DNA of 63,332 bases, filler included, from Rhabdomonas costata (lineage: Eukaryota): assembly GCA_019059605.1 (NCBI GenBank). It is 43 parts of 43 records of this genome, joined end to end, with 100 filler letters (N's around TTAATTAATTAA, not from the genome) between each part and the next. Parts side by side here need not be neighbours in the genome. Positions count along the whole stretch, not along the records: positions 32,445 to 33,819 come from JAHMHO010017823.1; positions 33,920 to 35,294 come from JAHMHO010017824.1; 41 more parts are not named here. One strand, 5' to 3'. Shown here one piece after another: positions 3,998 through 56,060 of the stretch. Numbering within the stretch: position 1 is the first letter of the stretch; each line of letters begins with the position of its first letter. The position numbers and the translations under genes were made by a program. Under the pieces are notes generated by a model. That model had not been told where the DNA came from and did not search any database. It was given only the letters and a program-made list of their open reading frames with translations.

Positions 3998-4084
3998 TCT
4001 TGAGAAAGCGTTTCTGCCAAAACAATAAGCACGGGCAGTGACAGCAACCCCTCCCTTAGGCTTTCTTCCCCTTCTTCTCACTTA

Positions 4085-4259
4085 GTCGGCCTACTGCGGC
4101 CTCCACTATGGTGGTTACACGGAGAGATGGGCACTTGACGCAGGAGGGTGGCCATCTCGGAGTAGAATAACGCATTTAGGAGCAATACGAGCGTGGCGAG
4201 TATGCGACCTAGTAAACAGAGCAAGGAGCGAAGCGACGCAGCGATAAAAAAGGGGCCCC
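4085..4259 (+). repeat. Conserved-block structured element, copy 1 (homologous to 34044-34245)
   Basis: Collinear blocks shared with contig 33920-35294: GTCGGCCTACTGCGG, TGGGCACyTGA..GAGGGTGGCCA, TACGAGCGTrGCGAG, AGGAnCGAAGyGACGnAGCG, GGGGCCCC. Confidence 0.85.
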
Positions 4260-4542
4260 AAAGGCAGGCAGCATAGGTATCATCACCATCAATACACCAT
4301 AAATCACGACATTTGCAACAAACANNNNNNNNNNNNNNNNNNNNNNNNNNNNNNNNNNNNNNNNNNNNTTAATTAATTAANNNNNNNNNNNNNNNNNNNN
4401 NNNNNNNNNNNNNNNNNNNNNNNNTCACTCGCTTGCATAGAACACTGTTGGTTATGTCTCGCCACCGCAAAATATAAACAAGAAGAAGAAAATAAGAAAG
4501 AAAAGCCAGGGGAGGGGGAGGGGCTGAGGAGACGCACAGAAC

Positions 4543-19172: not shown

Positions 19173-20485
19173 CTTCGCCCAGAATCCTCAAAGTGACGAA
19201 CACAATCCCGCTGTTCCTTTTTAAATTTGTGAACGCGTCCAAGATGGCATGGACGTTGGTACACTCCAAGCAGTAGTCACGGTGAAGATGGTGGGTGACA
19301 CCACGAATCTGGGAAACAATCTCGGCCAGCTGCTGTGCGCTGACCATGGCACAATGTAACTCTGGGTCCAGGAGTAAATCCCGGAGAAGTACGCGTGCTT
19401 CGGCAAGAGAAGAAGAGAGGTGGTGCATTTCCTGCAACTCAAGCACCCGAGACCAATGATGTACCAGCTCTTCGTACAAGTCTGGAAATGCTGTGCTGAC
19501 CAGATAATTGCCGGCAAAAACGAGCAACGATGAGGGAACATTTGGTACGCAGAAAGACCTGGTTTGAAACCTTTGCCGTGAAAGGGAAAGAATCGCGGCT
19601 AGAACATCCCCACTTTCCGGTACCTTCCGCTTAAGTGCTTGAAGGTGCCGCGAACTCACCTGAAACAACCATCGCAAACCTTCGGAAAGCCACGCCCGAC
19701 TGGTCGACCACATCCATGGGCTCACAAGGAATCAAGCCAGTTGCCGGAGAGCTCACTCGCCAATCGCGTGCAGGTTCAAGCTGATACATGACGTTTCCGC
19801 AAGGGTCGTAGAAGGTGAGCAGATGCAAGCGGCTGAAGTGATAATTGGTGTGGTCGGGGGAAGAAGCCAAAAAGGCCTCCAACCGAAAGGACGGTACACC
19901 TGATGGCATTGATTCTGACCACATCACCTGGTAAGCCAGGTCCTCCAAGCTAATCGCGCCCCAGTAGTAAAAACCATCCAGACGAAGGCCAATCTGGGTT
20001 ACAATGGAGTTTGTACCCACGACCACGGAATCATGGCGCCGAACCACTACAGATGATTCAGCGAGTAGCGGCGAGAGGACAGCATCGCAAACCATTTTCG
20101 AAGCGACCAGGGCTCGATTTCTGCGAATGCTCTTCAACAGGCGCTTTGGAGAGAGGACAGACTGTTGCCTCTCATGTAAATATTGCTGCTTTCCCACAAA
20201 AGCAGCGACAGCGAGATATGCTTCTTCGATGAAAGCGTCTGCAACGAAATCCAAGTCACCAATAACTTCGTCAGGAACTCCCAGAGTCTTGAGCTCTTTC
20301 CAAAGCGAATGCTGATCCACAATATTCAGAATTTCCAGGGGAGTCAGACTGTTCATCTGCTCAGCGGAGGGAAGGTCGAGAGGCTTTGATCCAGATTGAT
20401 TGGGTGAAGCTTGCAGACGACGTCTGATTTCATCGAATAGTTCCACAAGCTCCTTCCGGAAAAGACGCTCGTCAGCTTCGTACTC
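19173..20485 (-). CDS. Unknown protein; two long frames joined by a probable short intron near 19600-19659
   Basis: ORFs of 271 and 202 aa overlap in different frames; a strong CAG|GTGAGT donor and a phase-compatible ttctag acceptor join them. Confidence 0.55.
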
Positions 20486-20547
20486 TTCCGGAAGGAGCTT
20501 GTGGAACTATTCGATGAAATCAGACGTCGTCTGCAAGCTTCACCCAA
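20400..20547. repeat. Perfect 62-bp inverted repeat with a 24-nt loop at the contig end (probable amplification fold-back)
   Basis: 20400-20461 is the exact reverse complement of 20486-20547. Confidence 0.9.
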
Positions 20548-20647: not shown

Positions 20648-22021
20648 CCGTGAGATCCACGCCACATAGCCGCGGTCGCGTCCAAGTGGCGTAGCGGAGG
20701 TCCGCGTCCCTCCAGCAGCTGCTGAGGACCTAAAACGGTGCGGTAAAACAACGCTGAAACGAAAAGCGAAAAGGAAAGCAGAGAAAGTGCTCATAGTGGT
20801 GCGGATACCCAGTGGGTGTCACGGCGTCATGAAAGCGTAAATGTAGTGCTTGCAGACAAAAAGAAAAACGGGACAACATCAACCGGAGCGGTGGCCTTCA
20901 CAACTGTTTTTCGCCGTGGAAAACGGAAGCTGAGAGCAATTCTTACGGATTCGGGGGAGACAATTGGAAGAAAAGATGTCCCTAGCTTACTGCTTGGGTG
21001 CTTGCGCAGAGATTGTTAAAATTCTGCTGTGAGCTGCAGGGCACCGGTTCACCACATCAGGACAGGAATCTCCGCCTGCTCTGCGGGTCCCACACACATA
21101 AAACCCCAAAATGCCAAAACCCACCCGAAAAACCCACCCGGGCACCGGCAAGTGCAGCGGTTGCAGAAACATACACACACATTGCGCCTTGGCGCGGGGT
21201 GGTGTGGCGTGTCCTGCACACCGTGCACACACACATACACGCTCAAACACACACACCAACCTACAAAAAGAGACCTAGCGGCGCACCCACATCCTTACCC
21301 CAAATCAAAAAGAACCAAAACGAGGACGAATCCTTGCCCCCGGCATATTATGGCACTCAACCTCCGCTGCTCTCTGACGGAGAAAAGGGAAAAGGCACAG
21401 CCTCACCTCGTACACAATGTCCCACGAGGCAGCAATTGGTAAGTAAACACCCAAACAGCGAAAGATCAATAAGTATCAATAAGATAAAGGGAGTGGGAAA
21501 ACAAGTGGAAGACACTCCCCAGCTCCCCTGTAATGGTCAGCAGACCACCCGACCACCCGGGTTGAAAAGAGAGCAAGGCAAACGGTATGGGCAGTCGTGG
21601 CAGAACATCACCTCCTTGGTGCAGATATGGGCATCATCCATCATCCATCAGGTGAAAAGGGTTGGCTATCATGCAAAAAAGGATGTATCGGAGTACTTCT
21701 CAACTGTTTTCGTCGACAGCTCAAAGCCGTTAGGAGTACTGGTTACAATCAACCCTTCCCTCCATGGTACTCGACACACGCATGAACACTGGGTTCAACA
21801 GCAAGGCGAAAAACGTTGAGCACAACCTAAAACACCTAGTTCACCGCAGATTCTTGTTATTCTGCGAATTCTGCAAGAACAAAAAAATATGAGCTACAAT
21901 CACCTGCAGCCCGTCAATGTTGGCCCCAGTGAAACGGCACCCCGACAGGTCCCACCCCCGCACCACGTGATCCACCGCGGCCACCAAGGTCATCGCGTTG
22001 GCCGCCGCACGGTACCAACAA
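20648..22021 (-). CDS. Pentapeptide-repeat segment typical of NACHT-pentapeptide-WD40 proteins; exons 21904-22021 and 20648-20729
   Basis: Spliced: AAANAMTLVAAV..VRGWDLSGCRFTGANIDGLQ|VLSSCWRDADLRYATWTRPRLCGVDLT. This resembles the AAANAITIL..F.G.DLRG..IPGADL linker; phase-0 GT-AG intron. Confidence 0.65.
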
Positions 22022-22122
22022 NNNNNNNNNNNNNNNNNNNNNNNNNNNNNNNNNNNNNNNNNNNNTTAATTAATTAANNNNNNNNNNNNNNNNNNNNNNN
22101 NNNNNNNNNNNNNNNNNNNNNA

Positions 22123-22338
22123 CCAACATGCACTGCTGGTATGGCTGACATCAATGCTACCACCAACATCGTCAGCGTAGGTGTGGCTATATGCTACCAC
22201 TACCTTACACCTGACATCACCATCTGGTTGGCTGTCATGCTATGCGTACCACTACCACTCTATGGTGTAGGGCTACCACATGCATACACCACCTATTGGC
22301 TGATGTTGGCTGGGTTGAGCCTTGGCCTGACCTTCTAG
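22123..22338 (+). other. Hydrophobic frame weakly resembling mitochondrial nad4 (central TM region)
   Basis: IWLAVMLCVPLPLYGVGLPHAY..YWLMLAGLSLGL versus nad4 [30 protein letters not shown].VLLKL. Several invariant residues are missing. Confidence 0.3.
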
Positions 22339-22669
22339 CTTCCTCCGGAGGGGTTACCGGTCATGGCTCCTCAATGGTACTGAACGCCATACTGTTACCA
22401 TGGGCTCGTCCCACTTAAACGCATATGGTTCCAGCATCACTGCGGTTTACCCTTCTACTCGCTTACTCTTCCGTTGCCGCTCGTGCGTGGGGGCTTCTGG
22501 ATTCCAGCCTGCCAGTTCCATTCGCATACGAGGGTCGCTTTTCAACTAAAGTAGGTACAGAAGGCTAACTTGATCACTTTAGGTCTTTCGCTAGTGTCCA
22601 GCTATGCAGATGTCGATGGAAATTTCTTCACTACGTAAACCAACTTAGATATCCCGAGGGACAGCCGCA

Positions 22670-22930
22670 GAACCGAAACCTTAAAACCCAAACCGAAATC
22701 AAAAACCCCAACCCTCGAAGTCCGACGCCTTGATACCGAAACCCGAATGCAGGAATACGCGATACACTAACACCCTCGCCTTGGGAACACTAACACCTCG
22801 AATACCGAATGCCTCGAATACCGACACCTCGAATGCCAACACCCAAATACCCACTTCCCAACCCCAAGACCTGACTTCGAAATCCACCACCCCACCAAAT
22901 CAAATACCCACCCGAAATCCCAACCCTGAG
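22670..22930 (+). repeat. A/C-skewed tract with short direct repeats (CCTCGAATACCGA-like x3)
   Basis: Read directly from the sequence; AGGGTACCAGCCTGA also recurs at 22939 and 23095. Confidence 0.7.
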
Positions 22931-23856
22931 ACCGAGGGAGGGTACCAGCCTGATCGCAGGCAAGATGACACATGCCACCCACCTATCGGCATCTTGGTAC
23001 CCATCCAGAATCTACGCAAGGGTAACCACCTCCATCACTTCAGGATACCCGCCTACATGCATCTCCATACCGTTGACACCTGCTGGGGGGTCTAAGGGTA
23101 CCAGCCTGACCCCAAGATGATGATGGGGGTAAGGGGGGCAACCTGCATAGATGGACCCTAGACACCTCAATACCCTCAGAGACCAAAGACTGAGATGCAA
23201 GAGAGATGGAGTTAAGACCATGATAGATGCACATGATACCTGATGCCGAATTGCTTGTGCCATAATAGACCCCAATAAGATCATTGCTCCGTCCCATGAC
23301 ATGTATGTTGCAGAACATTGCTTTATCTGTCGTGATGTGGTAAAGAAACTGTACCGAATCAAAAATCTCCGGATGCTCTTGTGCCGTTATTGCAGAACTA
23401 GCGCGGCATTTCAACGGGCTAAGGCAAAACATCATCATTGGAACAACTGGTGATGTCCATGAGTCAATAAAAGTCAATTTCGTTGGACAAACCACCNNNN
23501 NNNNNNNNNNNNNNNNNNNNNNNNNNNNNNNNNNNNNNNNTTAATTAATTAANNNNNNNNNNNNNNNNNNNNNNNNNNNNNNNNNNNNNNNNNNNNGTTT
23601 GTCTGTTGGCTTATGGTAATTCTAGTGCTCTGTCCCGACTGTTCCGCCACTGTCCTATAACTGGCCTCGGAGCCTTCAAATTTCCGCCAGTGTGCGCCGT
23701 GAAGCATTCTTTTCTGTCACTGGTACTGGCGCAGGGGGAAAATGAAAGAGAGAGGAGCATTATCCACTTCACGGTGCCAGATATCCATCCAAAAGAGATA
23801 AGTAAAGGAGCTTGCACATCAGCTATGCATGTCATGCACAAGGAACCCAGGCAGAC

Positions 23857-27921: not shown

Positions 27922-28876
27922 NNNNNNNNNNNNNNNNNNNNNNNNNNNNNNNNNNNNNNNNNNNNTTAATTAATTAANNNNNNNNNNNNNNNNNNNNNNN
28001 NNNNNNNNNNNNNNNNNNNNNTGTGTGGGTGAGGTCTCCGCAGCAGACCGACCAGGCAACACGGTCAGAGGGTCGATAAAGCAGCCCGGCATAACTTGGC
28101 GCCCACGCGCTCAGGAAGAGATCCTTCCAGTGGACCAGCTGCCACTGCCGGTGCCCCGCCCTCCGGCCGCTGCTGCCGCGGAACCTGCTGCGGAGACCTC
28201 ACCCCCATATCCTTACTCTACGGCCGAGCTTGACCCCGAGGATGAGGTTGGCATGTGCGTGCTTGTATCTGTGGGTGTGACTGAATTCCTCTTTTTGTTT
28301 GTGTGTGGTTTTGGCGGGACCTCCGACACCCCCAATCTACCGGTTCCTGGACTTGCAACCAATCAGAGGGCTCTTGGAAATGGGGAGAGTGGAAAAGACC
28401 GCTTTCTTGAGCCGAAATCGCACCAGTGGAACCCATGCAAACTATCCATAACATTGTCCTGCATGGAGCACCCAAGATCTTGAGCTACCTTGGGTGGATA
28501 TCCTGAAACAAAGCGATACCGTACTTTGGCCTAACAAAAAATTGCTCGAATTTCTGTACCGTCTCTCAACATTCCATTGCCCTGAGCCCCCGTGCCTGTC
28601 TCAATCATAGCAGGATCTCTCACTACCTTCAAACACCAGCAGTCTCGGAGTGTAAATGTAATACCACGGGTTCCAAAGGCACACATCCCACATGAGAGAC
28701 AAAGCCCGAGCTGGATCTGGCACAGGTTTCATAATTGCTGGTTGTCCTTACTTGGTGGTATGGTAGTACTCCTGAGTTGAGTTCACTCGCAGCTTCTCAG
28801 TCTTTGGCAACATCTCTAAATTGTAGGCGTATCTTACGAACGCTTCCGATTTGGATTTCACCCAAAAAACGCAAAG

Positions 28877-29808: not shown

Positions 29809-30708
29809 GTGGGCTGGCGCTGAAGCCCCGGACGGGGATGGTGGAAATGAAGAACGACATGGGGGGCTCCGCGGCGTGCCTGGGAGCCTTCCTGGCGGCC
29901 CTGCCCGAGGCCCTCCCGCTGGACCTGCACTGCGTGCTGTGCGTCGCGGAGAATGCCATTGGCCCGGACGCGCAGAGGCGCGTACCCCTCCCCCTCCCCC
30001 CAACAGCCCTGCAGGCAGTTGCTTCACAAGCAGATCATAACACCCGCTGTGTTTCTGCCCAGCATACCCATTGGTAACCGGTCATTGGGCTGCATTTACG
30101 GTTCTCGTGCAAGCCCCTCGCATTGGCTACTCCCTCTGCCTTTCGTGTGCCAACATTCTATGGATCCTCCTTGCTTCCTTCCACCGTTCAGAAATGACGA
30201 CGTTGTCACGATGTACTCGGGTAAGACTGTGGAGATCACCAACACAGACGCGGAGGGTCGTCTGGTGCTTGCGGTGTGCACCCACCCCTCTCCCCTCCGC
30301 TCATACTGCCTTCTTTTCTGGGAGCAGGTGTTCTCATTGGGCACGGGCACTTCATTATTGGGTTACTTTACAATGCAGCTTTTTGACAGCTTTTTACCGT
30401 CCAGCATGAACCTGTTACCTGTTTACAGCAAGCCCAATTTTATCAGCCACCCACCTTTTCACGAGGGTGGTGAGCATCCATTTCTTCAGGAGTGCTGGTG
30501 GGGCCCAGACCTCTCCCCATCCCTGCTGTCACCTGCATCCACAGGACGGTATTGCGTACGCCTGCCGCCATCTCAGCCCCAAGGTGATCGTCGACCTGGC
30601 CACTCTGACAGGGGCCCAGAAGCAGGTCACCGGCGCCCTGTTCGCTGGAGTGATGGCCAACACGGAGCAGGCCGAGGCCCTTGCCGTGGCCGCGGGGAAG
30701 TACTCCGG
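29809..30708 (+). CDS. M17 leucyl aminopeptidase, NPEPL1-like; exons 29809-29977, 30192-30273, 30545-30708
   Basis: GGLALKP..MKNDMGGSAA...AENAIGPDAQR|NDDVVTMYSGKTVEITNTDAEGRLVLA|DGIAYAC..DLATLTGAQ. The first intron is GC-AG. Confidence 0.93.
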
Positions 30709-31816: not shown

Positions 31817-32501
31817 GTGTGTGCATGAGACCGAGAGGGGTTGGCCTTTGATTTTGCTTTGGCCACACGGCGTACGAGGTGTAATAACTTCCTGCTCTGA
31901 TTGCCTTGACGCGCAGAACATGTGTTGGGATTATGTCCTAGATAGACTATGGCATTTTGAGGATAGCGAGTTAGTGGACGACTCACTCGTTGATCTCTCC
32001 CGCAAAAGTCAGATGCCCATTCACGGGACAAGCAGCGTTGTGACCTCTGGGGGGAAATGAGGCTTTATAGGAAATACTGTCGTACCTGCTGCACACGGCG
32101 TATCGGCCGTGTTGATTTTTGACGGTGTGAGTTGCGGTTGCTCACATTTTCAAAAGATCATAAAGCGTAAGCATCTCAAAAAAGAACCTGAAGACAGAGG
32201 TGGGTACAATTCTAAAGTAACGCCTTTTAATTCTTCTAACTGGCCCTCTCTCTCCCAGCCTTCGTGACCCATGGACTTCCAACCCGGTATGGGATAATTG
32301 GCCCTCGCTGCTTGTGACTGAATCTGCCTTCTTCTTCTCGAAGGNNNNNNNNNNNNNNNNNNNNNNNNNNNNNNNNNNNNNNNNNNNNTTAATTAATTAA
32401 NNNNNNNNNNNNNNNNNNNNNNNNNNNNNNNNNNNNNNNNNNNNGGTTGGGTGTGTTGGGCGGGTTTGATGTCTCCGTGCACAACCTGTGCTGTGTGTGC
32501 C

Positions 32502-33761: not shown

Positions 33762-34043
33762 CTGGGCATATTTATGCAATGAGCCGCCTGAGGCACCTGG
33801 TCAGTTGAACAGTCCGTAGNNNNNNNNNNNNNNNNNNNNNNNNNNNNNNNNNNNNNNNNNNNNTTAATTAATTAANNNNNNNNNNNNNNNNNNNNNNNNN
33901 NNNNNNNNNNNNNNNNNNNGGGGGGGTGGGGGGAGCTGTTTCTGCGCAGAATATTTGGAGGTAGCAGGGGTGGTGGTGAGACAGGGTTGGACGTGACTCA
34001 CGAACACAGTGGTTGATGTTGGTCATCTTGGGATTGTGTGATG

Positions 34044-34245
34044 GTCGGCCTACTGCGGGCTTGGGCACCTGAGCGTAGTGAGGGTGGCCAAGACCGCAGC
34101 AGTGAGTTCAGCATCTAGGGAGCATGCGAGCTGAGGGGCCCCATGACACACGAGCGCAGCGAGCGAGGCATGGGGATTGAGACATTACGAGCGTAGCGAG
34201 ACACATCAGTGAGGAACGAAGTGACGAAGCGTTACTCGGGGCCCC
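34044..34245 (+). repeat. Conserved-block structured element, copy 2, with GCGNAGC motifs
   Basis: Same collinear blocks as 4085-4259. TGGGGATTGA, GAGCGTAGCGAG and GAGCGCAGCGAG are also shared with the minus strand of 55554-55861. Confidence 0.85.
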
Positions 34246-34658
34246 TCCCTTAGCATCATCCCTACACTCAACCCCTCAGCAGGCATCTTCACATCTTACG
34301 GTGGGTGCGTCAGGGGGAGGGGCCCTTCCTTCAACACCCATCATTGCATCCCTAAGGTGGGTCTAGCGGTAGAGGTTGGATTCCTCACTCGTAACCCCTC
34401 AGGTAGGGTGGAAGGGTTGACATCCATCACTCGGTCTCACTTCAACCGCCGGAGGCAGCATCAGTCACCATCATCAACCCTTGCATCGTGGTAGTGGTGG
34501 AGTGAGGGATGTCGAGTTGGACTGACGAGGCATCCCGAACGCAGGGTTGAGCTTGTGTTTGTATGGTCGCCCTCTGCGGGCTCCACTACGCGTCCTTCCA
34601 CCTCAGGTTGGCATTGGTTGGTTGAGTGGAGGGGTAGCCTTAGTTATAAGTCAGGTAG

Positions 34659-34928
34659 GGTGGGTTCAGCGACCGTCATGCCCTCACCCTCCGTCTCCCT
34701 CTCCCTCTCTACGTCACAGATGGGGTTACTGCACGGCTCACCCCACGTATCCATGGTCGGCCTCAGCACATACGCTTGAGTGGCATACACCACCGGTCAC
34801 GTATGACCTTAGCTCACCAGGTGTTGGTGGCCTCATCCGTATGTTGCCAGGCGTACCTGATATGCTCGTTTGGACTACTGCTTGCTCAAGACAGCTCTCA
34901 ACGGCTTCTGCGACGGATGGAACTATAG
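34659..34928 (+). other. Stop-free frame weakly resembling the atp6 C-terminus
   Basis: ALTLRL...(52 codons from R to Q)...CCQAYLICSFGLLLAQD versus human ATP6 ALAVRL...(51)...LIQAYVFTLLVSLYLHD. The middle part is too polar as encoded. Confidence 0.3.
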
Positions 34929-35029
34929 AGCGGCGTCTGGGAATGTTACACCTCTCGTGGAGGAAGGAATACCACCGGAAAAACGAACGTGAGCAGCACC
35001 TGAGGATCACACCGGAGTCAAACAGAAAC

Positions 35030-35294
35030 CCAACAACAAATGGAAACCGTAACCCCTACCCATGAATGACGGAATAGCCCACAGCAAGTACATCAGAGAC
35101 ACGAAACCCGACACAAAGACCCCAACCGAAATTCCCACACACCCTCCAACCCGACCCACCTCAACTTCCACGGCAACCCACCAACGCCCATCACCACAGC
35201 CCAACCAGCACACCAACTCCCACTCCACAACCCCCACCAACACAAAAACCAACACCAACGCCAACACCATCATTGCCCCAACCCCCACCCACAA
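35030..35294 (+). repeat. A/C-skewed low-complexity tract
   Basis: Strongly A/C-dominated (ccaac/accc units) up to the contig end. Confidence 0.8.
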
Positions 35295-36964
35295 NNNNNN
35301 NNNNNNNNNNNNNNNNNNNNNNNNNNNNNNNNNNNNNNTTAATTAATTAANNNNNNNNNNNNNNNNNNNNNNNNNNNNNNNNNNNNNNNNNNNNTTGGGG
35401 TTTCTTCATCTTGGGTGACGATTGAGTAGCAATGTGAGGTGACTTTCCATTCGGTCAGGGTGCCCGTGTCTTCGCCTCTGGCCGTGAGAGTCGCTTGTGT
35501 AGGTCATTTACAGAAGAGAGAATGAGAGAGAGACAGCATAAGCGGTTTACAGATTGGCACTGTAACCGGTAAAAGAGGGGCGTCATGCGTACACACACGG
35601 CTACCCCATGCTGCTGCTTCCTTACTGTGGTTGTGTTGCGTCAGTGTTGTGGTCGGCGCGAAGTGTCCAGGCATTTAATACTAATTGTTTTGTGTCCCTT
35701 TGCCGTTGGCGAGTTCTCACTTAAACGGGAACGGCTGGACGGGAAAACAAGGCCGATCATTCGTGAGTTTCGGACCCAAGCGGTGGGTTTGAGGGGTTTT
35801 TGCATGCGCCACGAAGCCTTCGATAATGCTTGAACGGTTGACAATGAGAAAATGTAAGATCTGCCCTGCATATTTTCCAATTGGATATTGTCCTGATGAT
35901 GCTCTCGCAGAAAATTTTCTTAATGGCCAGTTCCACCACGATCCAGAAATGGCCATGGAAATCACCCACCCACTTATGCTGCAAGAGAATGAAGGGAGGG
36001 GTGGGTTGGGTTGGCAAAGAGCAGGGCACCCCAAAGTCTTGTGCCCCTGAGCTGCCGTCCCTTCCATCAGTCCGTCAACGTCCGCATCAGCATCCGCTCG
36101 GGTGAACCTAGCAGTAACTGCTACCAAACATACGTGAAGTGGATCGGCAGACACCGCCGCGGCAGAAACCCGAGAAGCCCAGGAGAAACCGCGCACCCGA
36201 TGTCAGCAGCGTCTCCAAACTTACTCTGCACGGAAACCGCTTGCGGACCTTATATACCTTATCCTGGAACCTCCGTGCCTTTCTTCCATCACAACTGCCT
36301 GCACAACAATCAGGTGTCGTCCGAATTACCACGGCAGCAATGTCCGCGGCTCTCTGCAAATTAAAGTTATTTTTTTTTACAAAACACGAAAAGCGCTTTC
36401 TGCGCGCTTTCTGCCTATTCTGTCCGTATTTTGGCCCATAATGTTTTGAAGCATTCTGAAACCTTTTGCTTCAAATCTAAATCGCGCTTCCGCTGAACAC
36501 TGCTTGCGGCAGCTTTCACCCCTGGTGGGTCATTTTCGATTTTCTGGTACTTTCTGACGCTACAATTTGTCTCGACAGTTGGGGTGCACACGCAGAAAAT
36601 GAACTTACAGTGACCGCGAAAGAAAAACGGTCCGCCTGCGCAAGTGTACCAATCTGACGATCAGGTGCATAAAATATGCCATGCTGTCTGAGCATCCCCA
36701 TGAAATTCTACCTTCGGTACAAAAGCCCCCCCCACACACACACGCACAGATAACCCCAAACACCCAACANNNNNNNNNNNNNNNNNNNNNNNNNNNNNNN
36801 NNNNNNNNNNNNNTTAATTAATTAANNNNNNNNNNNNNNNNNNNNNNNNNNNNNNNNNNNNNNNNNNNNTTGTGGGGGGGGGCTGCTAACAAACCAAGCC
36901 CCTTTGCTTTCGGAAAAGCAGAGAGTGATGTGATGTCCACTGCTTGTTGTGCCATCCTTTTTAG

Positions 36965-37850: not shown

Positions 37851-39389
37851 GTACTTGTACCTGCCCAGAGGGTCGCCTTTTGTGACAATGAAAACCAACG
37901 CGAGGGGCGAAACAGCAGGGGTCCTGGCGGAAGCATTTCCGAAAACGCACTGTGTGGTGGAAGGACGGGGGATCGGGAGGAGGGTTATAAACCTCATAGT
38001 ACATCAAGGAAGGAACCCAGTGCAACTGGCGCCCAACCTGCTGCCATCGGAGACTTTGCCCCAGTCAAGGAGCCCTAATTTCGGAACGATGGCGGCTTAA
38101 CAGACTTCAAAAAGAAGGTTTCCTTGCGGAAACCTCCGTTTTTATAGCAACCCGGAAGGCAAGACAGAGCACAACAGCACAGCACCACGGGATGCAATGG
38201 GCGCCTTCTGCCACAATTTCAGCGTGGCTGGGCCACCACCCCCCNNNNNNNNNNNNNNNNNNNNNNNNNNNNNNNNNNNNNNNNNNNNTTAATTAATTAA
38301 NNNNNNNNNNNNNNNNNNNNNNNNNNNNNNNNNNNNNNNNNNNNCCACCAGATCCGAGACCCCAAGTCACCAAGCATCAAACAGAGATTGCCCAAACGGC
38401 GCCCAGTCGTGAGGGCAGGGCGCAGCAGAACCCAGAGCGAGACAGACGCCATGCACCACCCCCGATGAATGACAGCCGACGCCTGAAGTGCGCGGGGGAG
38501 AGGAATGGCAAGCAAAGAGGAGAGAGCCCCACAAGTCAGAGGAGATCAGCGGCAGAGAGAAGCAATGGGAATGGCTCAGGCAGTGAGCTGGAAAAGGGAA
38601 AAACAGACCAGGCAAACCGTTAGAAGACCGAGACGAAGCCAAAGAGCAAGCAGCTCTGTGCCAAAAGCTAAAAGCTCCACCACATCACCACATCAAGTAA
38701 AGTGGTAATGTCCGCAAACCTAGGAGCTTCGCAAGGGACTCAGCGCCAGCATCTGTGATTCCATTGTTTTCCAAGTGAAGTGCTTGTAGCGCACCGGCCT
38801 GGGAGGAGTGACTGTGGCGAAGCAAGTTTTCCAGCGAGGCCATCACCTTTCCCAAACCACAACTGTGAAAGACGACATGAAAAATTAAGTAAAAGCGAAA
38901 GAAGGGGGAACATCACTAGAGCGCAGCGAACGAAGCGAAACGAAAAGAGACATACCCAGAGAGGTTGAGGTTGCAGATAGATGACAGCATCAAGTCCACA
39001 ACTAACGGGACAGACTCGGGTGAAGCCATGAGAGTGTTGGACACATCCTATGCACGTTGGATGAAAGCGATAAAAAACGGGATAAAATGAATAAATAGCG
39101 GCAGAAAGTGTGCCCTGTGCCTGTGCCTATGCCACACGGCTTCCCTTGCGTTTAAGAATTGAAGAAGAAAAAGCAACAGGCAGTTAGAAGCAAGCAAAGA
39201 GTACACTGATACACATCGCACATCCAATTACCGACGGAAGCTGTCGCCCAATGATATTGGTGTACACCGAAATGCGAACTGAATCGTTTTGAAAATCTTG
39301 ATTACCAAAAACGGAATCAGCATGCGAAAACTTGCAAAAATGCGGACCAACAGAACCAAACGAAAGCAAGAAAAAGCAAAACAAGACCT

Positions 39390-39719: not shown

Positions 39720-39865
39720 NNNNNNNNNNNNNNNNNNNNNNNNNNNNNNNNNNNNNNNNNNNNTTAATTAATTAANNNNNNNNNNNNNNNNNNNNNNNNN
39801 NNNNNNNNNNNNNNNNNNNTGTTGGTGAGATCCCGAGCTCCCGGGATCTCACCAGCAACCCCAAT

Positions 39866-41194
39866 ATGTTTTTGGCGACTGTGAGAAATGGTGACACCTC
39901 GGACAACTACTCCGCTATTGTGGAAGCGGTGCAGACCAACTTTGCGGACTTCTCAATGTACTCTACCGTCTCATCTCCTGGAATCCTTCTCAGTCTGACT
40001 TCGGAAGCTACGGCTGAGGCATCACCGAGTGCATACGGGTTGCTTTACTTTCGAAACCGGACAGGGAAGATCACGACGTTTGATGGAGATTTGTGCCTTG
40101 GGTACGATAGATACGACTCATTGGGGCTGCAGGCTTCGAGCTGCGCGGTTTTTGTCCTCAATGGCACCCTAAGGACACTGTCTGGTGAGTACGCCTCTTA
40201 CAGCGATGGGTATTGCTTGTTCTCTGCAGCTCTCCCGAGTATCGCAGGGATGGTCCTGAGCGGGGGTTGTTCGACCTGTCAGGACTGTGCCGAGTGGATA
40301 AATGGCACTGATGGTGCTGTGAAGTCAACCTCGGGGTTGGTTTTGGTCTATAGGAAGCTGCGCACCCCGCTCACCGCGAAATATTCGAGCTGCGACTACA
40401 GTGGAGGGTTTGATGGCAATATTCGGGGTAAAAGTACTTGCGAAACCTACCTTGCTAGTTCACCTGTTAAAGCGACGTTTGCTTGGTCGCCGACGGCGCG
40501 GGAATATGTTCAGTTCGTGTTCTCGTTCTCGGGATGGGCGGACCTCAAGACCTGCGATGGTAACAACAGCTTTGACGTGACCATCCATTTGTCCCCGGGT
40601 TGGTCCTTCTTGCTTCCACCCAGCCCTACTCAAACTCTCCTCCTCCTCGCCGACAAGCGCTGCTGCAGCACGTTTCCCTTCTTGGATTCGTCCTATTCGT
40701 GGCTGTCGTTTGATGTCGTAGTTTTTGACCGGTATCAGATGGACGTACTTGACTGGGACTATTACAGCGCTGTGTACTCCCCCTCGCTGGTTTCACAGCT
40801 GAGCAGCCGAGCACCGGGTTCATTCAGCATCTTGTGCTTTTCGGACGACTCCATGGCCTTCCCAGAGGTCAACTGCAGCATCCCCGTTGGTTTCGGCACC
40901 TCTGTTGTCCGCTTAACGGTGAAGACATTGGCCCCTGTCCGGGTTATGGTGGATGGCGTGGAGATTGCTCGTTGCCGAGGAGGTTACCCTATGCTTTTCG
41001 GAAAATCTCCCAAAAACAGTGCATCGGAGTGCGTCCTAACGACCACCAGGATAACTTATGGAATTGTGATCGCACTAGCTCCCACAGACGACCCGTGGAT
41101 GTCGACAATGCCATACTTGGCGTTTGTAGACTTTGTGGTCAATTCCAACCTGTCTGGCTGTGCGGACGGACGAGGACTCTGGTGCCAAAAACAA
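39866..41194 (+). CDS. Long intronless Cys/Ser-rich ORF, probably an extracellular or surface protein (partial)
   Basis: More than 440 open codons, many Cys and several NxS/T sequons; no family recognised. Confidence 0.7.
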
Positions 41195-41818
41195 NNNNNN
41201 NNNNNNNNNNNNNNNNNNNNNNNNNNNNNNNNNNNNNNTTAATTAATTAANNNNNNNNNNNNNNNNNNNNNNNNNNNNNNNNNNNNNNNNNNNNGGTTTT
41301 GGTTGGGTGTGTAAGTGTGTGTGGGAAGGATGCACATTCATTCATAACCTTTTCTTGGGAAATTTAGATGACCTCCAAAACCGCTGCATCGCCACTACAG
41401 TGCCATTTTCTGACGGGGAGGGGGGGTCCTAAATGCACTTGCGCTGAAGGGCATCCTTAAAAACTCATCGGTTCGTTTGTCGAATTCTGAGGTCAGCGTG
41501 ACGTAAAACGGTGGTGGGCACAACGGGATCGCGCACCTCAGCAACGTGGGAATCGAGACTGGGGTGGACTGCTGGATGGACTGAGGGAAGCGGGAGACCC
41601 ACACCACGGGGGAGGCGTCCAGAAAGACCAGGGGCGAAAACACCTTGGAGGGTGCGTTGGAGAAGACCATCTGAAACCGGGACGACGAGTCCTGCAAACA
41701 AATCACATCGGACAAGTACGGATAAACTTTGAGGAAGGTGCACGATTCATTTACAAAACTTACTTTGAAGGTCAAAATGGATCAAAATTCTATCCACAAG
41801 GCGCTTCGTTTCATTTCA

Positions 41819-41860: not shown

Positions 41861-43609
41861 GCCAGTCTAAATGTCAAATGTAAAACGCGGTTCCAGGCTC
41901 CAGGTTCTCAGATTCCTGCCCAAAACGGGCCAGGTGGGAAGCGAATAGGGTGAAGATTTGATCCGAAGTAAGGGGTCCTGCCCCCCCCCTCCCATTCGTC
42001 ATTCAAAAAGTAAAAGAATTATTATGCGGCAGAGCAGATGGGGGGTTTTCTCAAAGATATACCTTCAGCCCCAGATAGTCAATGTACGTCGCCCCCAGCA
42101 GCAACGAGTGAGAGCCCTCAGGTGAGTACAGCCGCCTGGACAAGCCAGTCCTGGTAATGCAACAGTCACACAAAGAAGTGCTGGTCACGCTGGGGAAGGA
42201 GGGGATAGTACCTCTGGAAACGAAAAGCGAAAAACGGCACGCTAGGTATAAAAAAGGCAGTGTCAGGCATGAACAATGAAAAGGGGACGGCAGGGTATTG
42301 CACCGCAACCGTCACACCCACACAAGAAGATGATAGGAAGAAAAGGGGAGGCACGGTTGCTTCTCTCAGGTCCGGGGCGGAAAGTTCCAAGTTTACGCCT
42401 TGCTCTTTGGCATCGACAGATACAAAACAAAGCGGAATTAATAAACCCGACTGGCAACACTTAACTAATATTCGAATCGGTTCCCCCTGGAGTTCCAAGC
42501 AGAGCACGCATCCCGAGCCTACTTTCAGGTACCCCCCTTGATCAGCAGGCCCTCCAGTCACTCACACAGATAATGCACCCTGCTGGTGAAATCACCCTGC
42601 GTGACAGCCGACGAGGGATCCACCTTCTCAAGAGGGGACTATCTAACTTCTTGTCATGCACCCCCCAACNNNNNNNNNNNNNNNNNNNNNNNNNNNNNNN
42701 NNNNNNNNNNNNNTTAATTAATTAANNNNNNNNNNNNNNNNNNNNNNNNNNNNNNNNNNNNNNNNNNNNTTTTTTGTTGCTCTTATTCTTCCTTCGGAAC
42801 GCTTCACCAACGCAGTGGTTGGATGGAGGGCCTCTAGGTCGAGCAAGCGTTTTTTGCGCGAAAGTGGGCCGCTTTACGTGGTAAACAAGTGCCCTGTTCG
42901 TGGTTCCCAGTAAGATTTTGTTATTGAATCAGGATCAACCGGCGCTTCGAGTGATGAAGTCACCTTTGCTGGAGGTCGCTCCCCGACCCTCCTGGGGAAA
43001 ACCTAACTCAACCCAACCAGCCCTCTACGTATCTACCCCTAGAGGATAGCGTCGGTGGCGATCGGTACTGTTGTTGGAGCCTTAATACCTGTATATGTTC
43101 GTATGCGTTTGCCGGGATCAGGACCAACGAGACAACAGAAGCAGTGTCCTTTGCAAGCGAGTGACATAGGAAGCAAAGAATGACAGAATGCATCTACAGT
43201 GGGAAGCAATCGGGAGCAGAAAGGGATCGGCGCAGTGTTTGTCTGTAACAAAGTTCTGCACACAAGGGCGCAAGAGGGATCCGCAAGGAATCGCAAGGGA
43301 TCCGCAAGAGGGCGGGATCGGAGTGGGTGGGGCAAACAAATTGAAACAAACTGAGATACGCTAGTGGGGAATAGCCAAAAGTGGTCCCAGCAGTAGGCAA
43401 GAAAAACAGACAGAGAAGTAGCAGTTCACCCTACGACCACTCTTCCACTCAAGAGACCGACGGGATCTCCAAATATTCCAGCTCCAAGACGCGCAATACC
43501 ATACCTTCATCCCTGTCGATTGTCAAAAATAGCGCAGCCAACATTTGTCACGTCAAATGAAGCCTGCAGTTGGCTTGTGCGGTGGGTTCCCGTTGTGCGT
43601 TTGCCTCAG

Positions 43610-44144
<535 letters not shown>

Positions 44145-44389
44145 NNNNNNNNNNNNNNNNNNNNNNNNNNNNNNNNNNNNNNNNNNNNTTAATTAATTAA
44201 NNNNNNNNNNNNNNNNNNNNNNNNNNNNNNNNNNNNNNNNNNNNTGTTTGTGGGTTGTGTTGGGTGCGTCGAAAGTGGAAGAAACAGCAGGGTGTGGACG
44301 CGTTTGGGAAGGGGCAGCTAGAATACCAAAGCCCAACAACTCCCCTACCTCAGGAGAAAGGTGATGGGGGGGATGGGGGCCAGACACAC

Positions 44390-44630: not shown

Positions 44631-45935
44631 CAATTATGATACGCTTCAAAACATCCAATCAGCAAGCATGGCATACAACAATAACTACGCACCGAAGCAC
44701 AGTGGGGAGCAGATGTCTCATTTGAGTAATTGTTTTTTCACTTTTTCGATCTCTATTTCTTCGCTAATAAGTTCGAAAGGTCGGCTTTTGGGCCTACTCA
44801 GCTCTCAGTTATGAAGTGAAGTGGAATTTATGTTTCACGGCCTCCAGCCCAGCACCATACAATTATGAGGTGTATCTGAAGTATAGGACAGGGACCCGAG
44901 TGCTGCTTAATGTGCCCCAATAGACCCCTGAGGGAGTTCCAACCTGTCGGCTTCTTCGACTACACATTTGTACCCGCCATCACTGTCTGTGGAATACGTT
45001 GCCTTGTGGGCCCCGATCGTCGAACTCAGTGCTGAGGGCTGTTACAGAGGTTCAACTAGCAACAGCTGACAACTAGCACTCGCAAGAGATTCACTACCCT
45101 TGTGCAGTTGGGAATGCTCTAACGCGGGGCCTTCGTTCGTTCGTTCGTTCGTTCGTTCGACCTCTATCAAAACACTCTTTCAAATCGAAATCGATGGGAA
45201 CTTCACCGACCGTGAAAAACAAAGGGTGGGGGGCATACCACTGAACGCAAACAGCCCTCCTGAGGGGCTACGCGAGTTCCATTCACAAGTCGTGGAGGAG
45301 ATGTCGACACAGCTGGCCCTCAGAGGCATCGAGTAGTATTGGTAGAAGTCCTTAAGGATGCGGAGAGGGCGAGAGAGGCGGGGTTCGACACCAACCTACA
45401 CTATTCGCCGGATTGAAGTCTTCAAACGTCAAGGAAGCGTAAACTGTGTCCCTCCAGTCAACCTCCTTCCAGCGAACTCTTTTTTAGCGGAATTCAGCTG
45501 GGTCCTCTTCTGCAAAAAAAAAATTCAGCAATTGGCGGTTGCCGCTGGCAACGACCTACCAACTTTCAATGGGGCAAACAATGTGTGCGCCACAGGTGCG
45601 TGGGGTAAGGCGCAAAACCNNNNNNNNNNNNNNNNNNNNNNNNNNNNNNNNNNNNNNNNNNNNTTAATTAATTAANNNNNNNNNNNNNNNNNNNNNNNNN
45701 NNNNNNNNNNNNNNNNNNNGGTGTTTGTTCTTTCAGTTTTTGAACCGACGTTGGTACTTCTGGCACCCGTTTTGTGCGGGCATGCCCTTGATGGCACTCA
45801 CGCTTCCGATGTCGCAGCGTATGAGTCAAGATTGAGTGTCATGAATATGAATGAATGTGAGTTTCACCGCGGGCAGTCCGACAATGGGCAGAGGTACTTA
45901 TTGGCAAATCCGCAACTGTGGTGGGGACCTCACAG

Positions 45936-48691: not shown

Positions 48692-49722
48692 GCCCCGCCC
48701 GCGGCGGCGCCGGTGCCCCGGGTGGTGCCAACCAGGAGGACGTTGGAGAACCGCACCACGGTGAAGTGTACCCCCTCCAGGCTGAAGAACGGTGGGGGGT
48801 CCCCACACCGCGAGATCGTCCGGCTGCCACAGTACTGAGAAAAAGAGAACTCAGGAAGAGTGCAAACAGATTAACTCATCGCATCAGCAAGCTCGAAAAA
48901 GGTCTATTTTCTTTTGAAGGACCAAAGGTTTCTATCTGAGACGGCAATCAGCTAGGAACCGAATTCACAAAAAAATCGGAACAAAAATGTGTCAGCGTGT
49001 CAAAAGAAAAGGTCGGCTGACAAAGAGGCCTGGGAAACATCAGTCATTTGGGAAATTGGCGGAGTTTAACAAACCCCCTTTCCGAAAGATCTAACACTAG
49101 GGGTTGGGTTCGATTCACTTATCCCCTGGTATCGGCTAAGGTTTACCAAACCCCATGCTCGGTGTTAAACGGCGTGATTGCTCAACGCCCCCACAGCGCA
49201 ATTGTCCCCAAATGGAGCAAATGAAGGGCAACCACAGACATGGAGTCAGGATTGAGAGAGCGGTTTTTTTTTCCGGGAGTTGGTTTTCCTCGTAACATCT
49301 ATAAACAACGTTGGGTTAGTTCTGGTGGAAAAGTGGGTGAGCCGGGTGCCGGCAGTGGTTCGCTTCCTAGGAAGCGGGAACCACTGCCGGCGCCACACAT
49401 GAAGGGCAACTCCCCCGATAACAATAACTTGGAGCAGGGCTTCGATTTGCCATCAAGAAACCGGTCTAGTTCTATACCACCTTCACCGTGAATCGTGGCA
49501 AACCCACCCCGAAAGAGAAAAAGGAAGATCGTTCTCCCACGACCTTACCGCTTGCACACGAGGGAGGGGGACGCATATGGCACAGACCTTGCCCTCCCAG
49601 AAGCTGTACTTCCGGAAGAACAGCTCGTCGGAGTTCTTCGCAATGTCCCCGCGGTAGTCCTTCGCAATCAGGCGGTCCCCCCGTAGGTTCAAAATGAACA
49701 GCTGGCTAAGGCACAGGGCCAT
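48692..49722 (-). CDS. AP4M1: AP-4 adaptor mu subunit N-terminus; exons 49588-49722 and 48692-48834
   Basis: LSQLFILNLRGDRLIAKDYRGD...ELFFRKYSFWEGK|..GDPPPFFSLEGVHF..LLVGTT is a mu4-type longin domain. Confidence 0.85.
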
Positions 49723-54048: not shown

Positions 54049-54588
54049 CTTTGTGCAGCAACGAGGTAAATCACATCACTTGTGTCTCTACATTTGCCAC
54101 CAAACGATGGTGCTTCTGCGTTTGTATGTTCACATGCAAGGTACCTCATCCGCTCTCCTTTTTCCAGAACGTGCCACTCAGCCTGGTGCAGAATCGAAAA
54201 ATGCAGACATGAGATTTCTTCGGGGGAACAACAGAATTCTTGATTAAGCGATGTGAATATCCTATCGCAGTTCCGGTGTGCAATCTCGTGGAACTGGGTG
54301 ACTTTGGCTGAAATCTGCGCAGTCCTGGAATGGTCTTCGAACAACACTCCAATGCGATGTGACAAAACTTTGCTTTGAAGCTGTATCTTTGGGCACCGCT
54401 TTGCACAAGACTGCAACTCGCCCACAAAACTACCAATATCCCAGGGGAACTGCACCCTTTACCCCCCCACCCACCAAACACACCAACANNNNNNNNNNNN
54501 NNNNNNNNNNNNNNNNNNNNNNNNNNNNNNNNTTAATTAATTAANNNNNNNNNNNNNNNNNNNNNNNNNNNNNNNNNNNNNNNNNNNN

Positions 54589-55140
54589 TTTGTGGTGTTA
54601 GCATTCCAGTAGTGCTTCCTGTGTCTGATGTTGGAGTGTTGGTTCCTGGTGGTGTTCTTGGCTCCTGTCTTGCTTCTGTGGTAGGGTTGTGTGTTGGCGT
54701 TGATGGAGTGCATGTTGTTGCTCTTGATGGTGGTATTGTTGGAGGAGTGTTGTTGGAGGGGTTCAGTGGTATTGGCGTTGGAGGAGGAGTGGATGTGGGT
54801 ATGGCTGGTGCAGTGGTGGTTCATGGCGTTAGTGTTGGTGGTGTTCTTAGCCTTCCTTTCTCTTGTGTCCCTGTGTTGGTTCCTGCTTCTTGTGTTAGCG
54901 TAGTGTTGGATGAGGGGTTGTGCGTCTCTAGCGCTTCCTGAGTTGAGGGTTGATGTTGCTGAGTTGAGGGTTGATGTTGAGTGGGTATTGGTGATGCTTG
55001 TGTGAGGGTTGATGTCTTGGTATTCCTGGCGGTGGTGTCGGTATTCCTGGTGCCTTTATGCCTTCTTGTGGTGATGTTGATGCCTTGAGTGTCTAGCGGT
55101 ATTCCTACTCCCTGAGTTGATGCTGGTATTCCCTCTCCTG
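54589..55140 (-). repeat. Long G/T-skewed tract (A/C on the minus strand) with a 21-nt-period tandem repeat at 54939-54979
   Basis: TGAGTTGAGGGTTGATGTTG x2 and recurring GGTATTCC units. Confidence 0.8.
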
Positions 55141-55553
55141 ATGTTCCTTCCTCTTACGCTCCGTCTTACGTGGCTCCTTCCTCTTACGCATCGATGGTAG
55201 TGACATTCCCGCTACTGACGCAAGAGGGAGGAGTAACGATGCATACAGAGGGAGTAAGGGTGCTAGAGTGAGGGCTGACATCCCCCGCTAAGGTGATGGA
55301 GGGAGTAAGACTGATGCCATGACTTCTACCGCAGTGCCTTTCATCCTTCTACGGGCATGCCTCCTAGGTCTTCCTCTCCTACTCCCTACTCCGCATGCGC
55401 CCCTCCTTCGTCGTGACTGCATGCTACGTACATACCACTGAGAGAGAGAAAGCCTTCAACATCCACTGGTATTCTGTACTCCGGCTACGCCCGGTCGGAA
55501 CATCCCGAGGGACGGAGGGATGCGAAGAGACAAGTGTATGCATAACGTCCTCA

Positions 55554-55861
55554 CTCGCTGCGCTCTCTTACTACTACGGCATGATCCACTGCGTGACTCA
55601 TGCCTACGTGAAAGGGGTAAGGGCTCCGCAGGAACAAGACCTCCCTGAGTTCATGTCCTAGGGTGATGTTGAGTGAGTGGAAGCACCTTATGGTGGTGTA
55701 ACGAACGGAGAGAGGGATGCGAGAGGACGTGAGCATCACGACGACAGAGAGGAAGAGGAAGAAGATGTTGATGTCGGGATGCCTCGCTACGCTCAGCATC
55801 CCTCCTTCTTTCTTTACGTCGTCATGACTCGCGATGCTCGTCATTCCTCCTTCAATCCCCA
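55554..55861 (-). repeat. Partial third copy of the GCGNAGC conserved-block element
   Basis: The minus strand has TGGGGATTGA (55852-55861), GAGCGTAGCGAG (55783-55794) and GAGCGCAGCGAG (55554-55565), all also present in 34152-34200. Confidence 0.6.
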
Positions 55862-56060
55862 CCGACCTCTGCCCGCCGTCCCCTGTGCTGCACCAGTGAC
55901 GGTGGGTCCAGGAGCATCCTCATCACCACCATGAAGGGCATCGAGAATTACAACAAAAACNNNNNNNNNNNNNNNNNNNNNNNNNNNNNNNNNNNNNNNN
56001 NNNNTTAATTAATTAANNNNNNNNNNNNNNNNNNNNNNNNNNNNNNNNNNNNNNNNNNNN

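Follow-up and report, generated by a model that had tools for sequence, protein, structure and literature searches.

A candidate family of diverged, hairpin-bearing repeats on three contigs of an intron-rich eukaryote

Three of the 43 contigs in the window (the whole 63,332-nucleotide stretch of DNA analysed, filler included, taken from a fragmented, whole-genome-amplified protist assembly) carry homologous DNA. The explanation that we favor, at about even chances, is that these are diverged copies of a single non-coding repeat family of an intron-rich eukaryote, most probably an interspersed or complex chromosomal repeat. The homology itself is real. We call the contigs A (c2950, ending at 4324), B (c33920, positions 33920..35294) and C (54589-55960, minus strand). 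A and B had been paired in a sequence-only reading; C, absent from that reading, is a third member and has the layout of B, in which a conserved part is followed by some 620 unalignable nt and then by a long A/C-rich tract. Because the family is carried by three of 43 randomly co-sized contigs, it must be abundant, and ordinary host genes on contigs of the window contain spliceosomal introns. A helicase exon of the host finds its best match in a EukProt protein, at 51% identity; its remaining matches reach 46% at most (47% for one shorter match) and are spread across plants, fungi and algae. The features considered below are as follows.

33920..35294, plus strand: contig B, a full-layout member with G/T-rich leader, conserved modules, variable part and A/C-rich tract
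33920..34038, plus strand: G/T-rich leader, its first ~15 nt probably primer-derived
33971, in the B leader: TGGTGGTGA, common to C at 55931
34039..34093, plus strand: module M1, copy B1, with block 1 (ATGGTCGGCCTACTGCGG) and a hairpin with tip GAGCGTAGTGAG
34133..34174, plus strand: GGGGCCCC, then a CCCCATG...CATGGGG stem enclosing GAGCGCAGCGAG, not in A or C
34133..34247: 10-bp inverted repeat GAGGGGCCCC/GGGGCCCCTC around 95 nt
34160..34329, plus strand: module M2, copy of B, with TGGGGATTGA, TACGAGCGTAGCGAG, AGGAACGAAGTGACGAAGCG, GGGGCCCC and an A/C-rich tail
34239-34249/34315-34325, 34260-34273/34620-34633 and 34419-34432/34500-34513: further inverted repeats of B
34560..34639, plus strand: M1 copy B2, in which block 1 recurs with block 2 in degenerate form
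34753..34763, plus strand: third ATGGTCGGCCT word
34990..35294, plus strand: A/C-rich tract of B, 85% A+C over 35072-35294, its last ~10-20 nt primer-derived
4079..4159, plus strand: M1 copy of A
4166..4322, plus strand: M2 copy of A, cut by the contig end at 4324
54589..55960, minus strand: contig C, the second full-layout member
55709..55875, minus strand: M2 copy of C, including the perfect hairpin GGGATGC-T-GAGCGTAGCGAG-GCATCCC at 55776-55802
55554..55565, minus strand: second GAGCGCAGCGAG in C
54589..55150, minus strand: A/C-rich tract of C (G/T-rich on the plus strand), with strong 3-nt periodicity and one in-frame TGA
28038..28055, minus strand: possible fourth block 1 fragment CTGGTCGGTCTGCTGCGG, uncertain, at a contig end inside a fold-back (nhmmer E=2)

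The collinear blocks that the sequence-only reading had described for A and B were all recovered. Block 1, the 15-mer GTCGGCCTACTGCGG, is exact at 4085 (A) and 34044 (B), and is accompanied by TGGGCACYTGA (4128 and 34062), GAGGGTGGCCA (4144 and 34080), TACGAGCGTRGCGAG (4186 and 34186, with an additional copy bearing two mismatches at 34149), AGGANCGAAGYGACGNAGCG (4224 and 34212), and GGGGCCCC (4252 in A; 34135 and 34238 in B), in the same order and with spacers of unequal length. Could there be no family at all, only chance, genome-wide low-complexity words and amplification artefacts? Several results lean that way: block 1 alone is not significant (three matches at up to three mismatches against 1.08 expected, with 8 of 100 shuffles also reaching three), blastn at E<0.01 fails to link A and B, exact 8-mers rank the pair only second of 1806 comparisons (23 against 24), blocks 3 and 4 resemble a common (AGCGN)n vocabulary with related GCGA/CGAA clusters in 11 other contigs, and shuffled sequences fold as RNA just as well as the ~200-nt conserved regions of A and of B (z -1.9 to +0.3). 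We nevertheless regard this possibility as highly improbable. When inexact seeds and a calibrated gap penalty are used (1794 of 1806 comparisons finished), A-B becomes the top-scoring contig pair at 56.8 bits, about 16 bits above the bulk of comparisons, with a simple repeat next at 49.4, then 40.5, and the 99.9th percentile at 42.3 bits. The A-C local alignment scores 49, which none of 200 shuffles reaches (mean 20.5, maximum 31), and all three occurrences of GGGGCCCC in the 63-kb window fall within the A and B copies. The second block 1 inside B, at 34566, scores 31, reached by none of 300 shuffles, and bears the extension CTCCACTA, which is also in A and missing from the first B copy. A profile search of the window returned no members beyond the training copies, the contig c28022 standing at E=2. 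The A/C tract was also considered as a stack of universal primers and this was rejected, as what we take to be the universal primer sequence has no copy with up to three errors inside the tract of B.

The family has a modular build. M1 consists of block 1 and an imperfect hairpin, together an imperfect palindrome of ~55-80 nt (n=3), and M2 is a segment of ~100-170 nt around GAGCGYAGCGAG (n=3). The strict GCGNAGC heptamer that had been emphasized earlier is not enriched (one in A, two in B, 54 across the 43 contigs); the enriched word is instead the 12-mer GAGCGYAGCGAG, with eight matches at up to one mismatch against 0.29 expected, a count that none of 100 shuffles reaches. The related GCGYAGC does cap longer stems, at 34071, at 55783 and, with spacers, at 34152, and the flanks are complementary at P<0.01 at two of the eight GAGCGYAGCGAG sites. 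The proposed pairing of block 1 with the end of block 2 is borne out by an inverted repeat in both contigs: in B it joins 34053-34069 to 34083-34099, the B1 stem reaching 34099 (CTGCGG/CCGCAG), and in A the minus strand of 4138-4155 matches the block 1 pattern. The outer stem reads GAGATGG/CCATCTC in A, CTTGG/CCAAG plus CTGCGG/CCGCAG in B, and GGGATGC/GCATCCC in C; the tips are kept while the stem sequences vary. Whole pieces also come and go: 25 nt common to A and B2 are missing from B1, the GGGGCCCC...CATGGGG module occurs in B only, and in C a GGTCGG is joined directly to TGGGGATTGA. B is the richest of the 43 contigs in inverted repeats (five, against at most three elsewhere and 0-2 in ten shuffles of B). 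Short perfect hairpins in general are not enriched (two in B against 2.4 expected, three in C against 1.9). On its minus strand, B gives a better fold than its shuffles (z=-3.5 and -3.6, the lowest among 52 control segments), and the equivalent strand of C has z=-2.3.

The copies look old, with many indels: identity is 68% over 121 columns for A-B, 76% over 72 for A-C and 63% over 147 for B-C, with 9-22 gap columns, and the longest ungapped stretch at 90% identity or more spans 20, 12 and 17 nt, respectively. Beyond the modules, the unit has drifted past alignment, keeping only its base composition and an A/C-rich tract prone to slippage. We infer that the parts that remain recognizable are those that can fold into stem-loops when single-stranded, as DNA or RNA. 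Because the GCGYAGC tip is carried on stems that differ between copies, we regard the hairpins as the component that is under constraint or propagates itself. They might propagate as small palindromic insertions, or serve as a site recognized by a copying machinery, with the sequence around them decaying neutrally.

In favor of a chromosomal repeat are the modules present in some copies and absent from others, the lack of detected coding capacity, and the host-like flank of A. The ~1.1 kb upstream of the A copy is rich in A/T runs, resembles gene-bearing contigs, and has 10-11-mers, GAAAAGCGAAA among them, in common with other contigs; it is unrelated to the leader that B and C have in common. 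With a fold-back at the start of contig A, this flank could also be an amplification chimera. Against a chromosomal repeat, runs of 11-15 identical bases within 63-68% identity are unlike uniform decay, and no transposase, terminal inverted repeats or target-site duplications were found. The only visible boundary lies at ~4079 in A; B and C run to primer-derived ends, and their internal inverted repeats of 10-27 nt do not fall at homology boundaries. Also against it, B and C stand out in composition along their full 1.37 kb and have a common layout, and neither is expected of the random genomic flanks of a transposon. Among known elements, short G+C-rich palindromes include the GC clusters of yeast mitochondria and the PstI palindromes of Neurospora. 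Like these and MITE-like hairpin repeats, the present modules are short palindromes, imperfect, scattered in non-coding DNA, with a tip that is kept on stems that vary, and they are present in one copy and absent from another. On the side of differences, no target-site duplication or terminal repeat was seen among the three to four copies available of each type. If the family is an ordinary diverged repeat, it marks a frequent one (three of 43 contigs), with hairpin modules that would confound assembly and annotation of this amplified genome.

What, then, sets B and C apart? On the first principal component of trinucleotide composition they lie at -4.1 and -3.9 over the whole 1.37 kb, against -1.1 to +2.3 for 40 other contigs. 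They lack the A/T runs typical of other contigs and share an A/C tract of 220-540 nt at a similar distance; in B, the final 300 nt are 82% A+C, the other contigs having 0.37-0.64. The claim of a family that combines conserved and variable parts with an A/C tract is supported, and gains from C as a second full example and from the unusual composition of both. Its extension to small replicons, with a multipartite mitochondrial genome as the most plausible form, has no positive evidence here. Under that extension, B and C would be small extrachromosomal, probably mitochondrial, chromosomes of a heterogeneous family, a reading that we consider unlikely. It is consistent with the same layout around unalignable interiors, the distinct composition throughout, the frequency of the family (three of 43 contigs), and the better-folding minus strand of B with its equivalent in C. 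In such a replicon, the hairpin-rich conserved region would act as an origin or promoter, followed by a variable cassette and then the strand-asymmetric A/C tract. Against it, host-like DNA adjoins copy A, and none of 89 ORFs of at least 30 aa (TGA=Trp; from B, C, c22122 and the tail of A) matches Pfam at E<=0.01, mitochondrial families included; short, divergent or edited gene modules would escape this search. Nor can junctions be read from the contig ends. At least nine of ten bases are A/C at the 3' end of 27 of 43 contigs and G/T at the start of 31 of 43, which is an amplification-primer signature, and because the ends are primer remnants, terminal overlaps are uninformative on circularity.

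Comparison with known multipartite and single-stranded systems gives both likenesses and differences. Kinetoplastid minicircles carry conserved blocks including a universal 12-mer. The present family resembles them in combining a conserved region with a roughly kilobase-long variable region bearing inverted repeats, but that 12-mer, in the form we take to be universal, has no match in the window at up to one mismatch, the host genes have spliceosomal introns, and the conserved part is poorly conserved. Mini-hairpins of the d(GCGNAGC) type occur at phage and plasmid single-strand origins, and the three longer stems with a GCGYAGC apex described above are a likeness; unlike such origins, the family shows no enrichment of the heptamer, significant stems at only two of eight 12-mer sites, no Rep-like gene among the 89 ORFs (Pfam), and no phage or plasmid similarity here. 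Diplonemid mitochondrial genomes also consist of many molecules that pair a common non-coding part with a unique part, and published accounts call this DNA G+C-rich, as the family is. They give 97-98% identity between constant regions in Diplonema and a chromosome-class criterion of >90% identity over >100 bp, against 63-76% and stretches of 12-20 nt at 90% or more here; further points of difference are the lack of a detected gene module (0 of 89 ORFs, Pfam) and the host-like DNA beside one copy. In another diplonemid, Namystynia, the chromosomes are described as sharing only short motifs amid unalignable repeats, a pattern like the present one; its motif 1 with the reverse complement is however not enriched in our sequences (5 against 8.9 expected).

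Taken jointly in all its details, the fuller version of the replicon scenario is quite unlikely: an orphan protist rich in introns would possess an extrachromosomal genome of many parts, so far undescribed and most plausibly mitochondrial, with B and C as near-complete units. The loosely conserved, hairpin-studded control region would use a GAGCGYAGCGAG-tipped stem-loop as origin or promoter and would be read on the complement of the strand described here, that is, the better-folding one. A variable cassette and then the strand-asymmetric A/C (G/T) tract would follow. Copy A would then either stem from DNA of this sort inserted into the nuclear genome or be a chimera made during amplification. 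Were it true, it would add a new fragmented organelle genome architecture in an unsampled eukaryotic lineage, with a conserved region held by structure and not by sequence identity, and it would bear on the replication and evolution of multipartite mitochondrial genomes.

The composition could also point to a foreign source: B, C and perhaps c22122, the three compositional outliers of the window, might come from another genome co-amplified with the host (prey, symbiont or contaminant eukaryote), in which the family would be a repeat, A being a chimera of the kind suggested by the fold-backs seen in five contigs. We consider this improbable, given that GCGA/CGAA motifs like blocks 3 and 4 also occur in gene-bearing host contigs and that the block pattern (block 1, 1 to 31 arbitrary bases, TGGGCAC) has no occurrence in the collections of viral contigs and prokaryote genomes searched. 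The assignment to a contaminating plasmid or phage that had been raised earlier was likewise not supported, as whole-contig blastn in distant mode gave no match to phage or plasmid records. A single metagenome contig does match the block pattern; it is high-GC bacterial DNA that lacks the other blocks, and we discard it as chance. In the literature text covered by a search for four block sequences, the two 15-mers do not occur and the 11-mers appear only as unrelated primers.

Might the contigs instead form a gene family, whose A/C tract encodes a Thr/Pro/Ser-rich low-complexity domain and whose conserved part is a shared upstream or 5' region? The tract of C is as strongly periodic, at 3 nt, as genuine coding sequences used as controls (chi2 49, p=7e-9; C falls at codon position 2) and holds one phase for ~480 nt, yet a TGA lies within the periodic frame, the periodicity is weak in the tract of B (p=0.08) and lacking in that of c22122 (p=0.29), and decayed trinucleotide repeats would yield as much. 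Stops interrupt every frame of the variable parts, these show no protein-level similarity to one another, there are no Pfam matches, and the ORF at 34526-35062 has no homologue among 167 candidates, all of which makes a gene family doubtful at best. Of other searches for coding or structured elements, translating B and comparing it with the 42 remaining contigs gave nothing better than E=0.027, the 458-aa ORF of contig 39820 has no usable match in Protein Atlas, a tRNA search found none, and Rfam 15 gave no match at the gathering score across the window and only chance-level miRNA and snoRNA rows at E<=5-10 in A, B, C and c22122. Two further candidates were dropped: an organellar code suggested by TGA=Trp, since long TGA-containing ORFs occur on both strands, as by our estimate low TpA would give, and a dinoflagellate spliced-leader relic, with no match to the leader motif.

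The ends of the contigs carry a practical lesson of their own. Most contigs have the final 10-20 nt of B's A/C tract in common with it, and primer remnants and fold-back chimeras at contig ends must not be taken as biology.

The family is real, and it is somewhat larger and better defined than first reported. Every collinear block that the sequence-only reading had assigned to contigs A (beginning at 2950) and B (33920-35294) was found as placed. The 15-mer of block 1 (at 4085 and 34044) lies by itself within chance for a window of such size, and with exact seeds only, the A-B pair ranks second among 1806 contig-pair comparisons. When chains are scored with inexact seeds allowed and a charge on every additional seed for its search space, the pair comes first among the 1794 finished comparisons, at 56.8 bits; a simple-repeat pair follows at 49.4, and the one after it has 40.5. 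Independent support for homology comes from the placement of GGGGCCCC, whose three copies in the window all fall inside the two copies, A and B; from a second block-1 copy inside B, at 34566, which carries the extension CTCCACTA present in A and missing from the first B copy; and from a three-way alignment, which shows both block-2 halves in degenerate form in this second copy too. Chain rank, GGGGCCCC placement and the second block-1 copy together confirm the shared blocks. The strict GCGNAGC heptamer, named in the sequence-only reading, is not enriched, with one occurrence in A, two in B and 54 in the window. The enriched word is a 12-mer, GAGCGYAGCGAG, with eight matches against 0.29 expected. 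Blocks 3 and 4 also look like (AGCGN)n vocabulary, relatives of which occur in other contigs, and GAAAAGCGAAA was found in three contigs. Related word clusters recur in gene-bearing contigs:

38919-38948; 20759-20770; 42220-42231; 45132-45159: purine-rich GCGAA/ACGAA clusters and (ACGA)n

In trinucleotide composition, B and the contig at 54589-55960 are the two strongest outliers, and among 903 contig pairs they share the most 10-mers (26, vs 16 for A and B and no more than 15 for any other pair), for which reasons the latter was read, on its minus strand, as contig C. It holds two exact copies of GAGCGYAGCGAG and the 13-mer CGAGGCATCCCGA, also found in B at 34526, and a 67-nt stretch of it aligns with blocks 3-4 of A, spacer included, at 76% identity; the alignment scores 49, a value reached by none of 200 shuffles (mean 20.5, maximum 31). 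As in B, the next ~620 nt are unalignable and a long A/C-rich tract stands at the end, so that C is a further example of the layout first described, a conserved part followed by a variable part and an A/C tract. Searching the 43 contigs with a profile of the three copies found no additional member; an 18-mer at 28038-28055 resembles block 1, and its membership is doubtful. A/C-rich sequence also occurs inside the third compositional outlier, at 22122-23496 (tract at about 22660-22940), where there are tandem units of 15 nt and 19 nt and recurring GCTACCAC words; neither module listed below is present in this contig, and it has no Pfam or Rfam match.

The family is modular, and modules found in one copy can be missing from another:

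4079-4159; 34039-34093; 34560-34639: M1, block 1 plus an imperfect palindrome
4166-4322; 34160-34329; 55709-55875 (minus strand): M2, with TGGGGATTGA, ACGAGCGYAGCGAG and the purine-rich block 4

The preserved stem suggested by the sequence-only reading stands: block 1, through its 3' part, can pair with the last bases of block 2. Inside M1, GGGCACYT is paired with AGGGTGGCC beneath a tip (GAGCGTAGTGAG in B, GACGCAGGAG in A), and the outer stem bases differ between copies yet remain complementary (GAGATGG/CCATCTC in A; CTTGG/CCAAG, then CTGCGG/CCGCAG, in B). In C, a perfect 7-bp stem, GGGATGC/GCATCCC, is capped by the second GAGCGYAGCGAG. Flanks are complementary at P<0.01 in two of the eight sites of this 12-mer; beyond those two, one has a distant 7-bp stem and one a bulged 6-bp stem. 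B carries five inverted repeats, the most of all contigs (at most three in the others, 0-2 in its own shuffles), and is not enriched in short perfect hairpins generally. On both strands, the ~200-nt conserved parts of A and B fold no better than shuffles. The minus strand of the 600 nt after the leader in B does fold better (z=-3.5 with 20 shuffles, -3.6 with 12), giving the lowest value against 52 control segments from 26 contigs (mean 0.23, sd 1.31). In C, z is -2.3 for the corresponding strand and +0.3 for its opposite; because three of the 52 controls go at least as low as -2.3, B alone is exceptional. The result hints, weakly, that where a single strand matters, it is the complement of the one described here.

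The assembly is very fragmented and the window, 63,332 bases made up of 43 contigs, each 1372-1397 nt long and separated by N runs around TTAATTAATTAA, is a size-sorted slice of it. At least nine of the first ten bases are G/T in 31 of the 43 contigs, and at least nine of the last ten are A/C in 27, a polarity that is the reverse of telomeres and matches G+T primers left at the 5' end of each strand. An 18-nt sequence that we take to be the universal primer of a commercial amplification kit has exact 10-12-nt matches at five of 86 contig ends, a lead and not proof. From these G/T starts, A/C ends and primer-like ends, untrimmed primer remnants persist in the assembly. Five contigs further have fold-back inverted duplications at or near their ends, which are probably amplification chimeras.

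32445-32466; 41295-41316; 44245-44266; 54467-54488; 36748-36769: 10-12-nt matches to the presumed primer
2952-2978 vs 3129-3155; 28024-28046 vs 28185-28207; 39820-39857; 20400-20547; 49345-49394: fold-back inverted duplications

End polarity, primer matches and fold-backs therefore indicate that the DNA was whole-genome amplified and that contig ends are not natural ends. The presumed primer has no copy inside the A/C tract of B, which was therefore copied from template and does not consist of stacked primers; tracts of this kind would nonetheless be favoured as amplicon ends by the amplification method. In C the tract has a 3-nt periodicity as strong as true coding controls (p=7e-9), in a single phase over ~480 nt, and in B a weak one (p=0.08); the decay of trinucleotide repeats would leave the same pattern. 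The periodic frame of C (54589-55153, minus strand) is rich in Thr/Pro/Ser and extends to the contig end, with one in-frame TGA near 54836. With TGA read as Trp, B, C, the contig at 22122-23496 and the tail of A yield 89 ORFs of 30 aa or more, none of which matches Pfam at E<=0.01; B peptides have no match better than E=0.027 in the other 42 contigs, and a homologue search with the ORF at 34526-35062 found none.

The simplest account, to which we give about an even chance, is a non-coding repeat of the host genome, old and diverged, whose small palindromic modules are its recognisable, probably constrained parts. The sequence-only reading had instead proposed minicircle or mitochondrial replicons. 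That proposal, whose whole basis is layout and composition, seems to us improbable. It draws on the layout common to B and C, on their composition, which lacks A/T runs along the whole contig, on the frequency of the family, and on diplonemid parallels: published accounts describe diplonemid mitochondrial DNA as G+C-rich and, in one species, chromosomes with only short motifs in common amid unalignable repeats. However, the conserved parts match pairwise at only 63-76% identity and contain many gaps (longest 90%-identity stretch, 12-20 nt), below the published class criterion for diplonemid chromosomes; the 12-mer of kinetoplastid minicircles is absent, the chromosome motifs of Namystynia are not enriched, a search for gene fragments found none, and M1 in A is immediately preceded by ~1.1 kb of host-like DNA. 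Searches of plasmid, phage and prokaryote records give no support for contamination from such sources, and the single metagenome match to the block pattern is a chance match.

The host, a eukaryote, has spliceosomal introns. One of its genes, for a leucyl-aminopeptidase, runs through three frames and has two introns, one GC-AG and the other GT-AG:

29980-30190: leucyl-aminopeptidase introns, the first appearing to begin GC rather than GT, the second GT-AG

Exons of a kinase, a PI3/PI4-kinase and PRMT5 were found among the host contigs, and the top protein match of a helicase exon is a EukProt protein (51% identical), the remaining matches being scattered over unrelated groups. Two contigs, 59009-60382 and 39821-41194, are open from end to end and encode, respectively, a 458-aa protein built of highly regular WD40 repeats and a 458-aa Cys/Ser-rich protein without a match in Pfam and Atlas searches. 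An 81-nt tandem repeat (4.2 copies; 10442-10785, minus strand) lies inside a leucine-rich-repeat gene, and (TAACCC)x7, a TTAGGG-type telomere repeat, occurs internally in a contig at 41819-41860.
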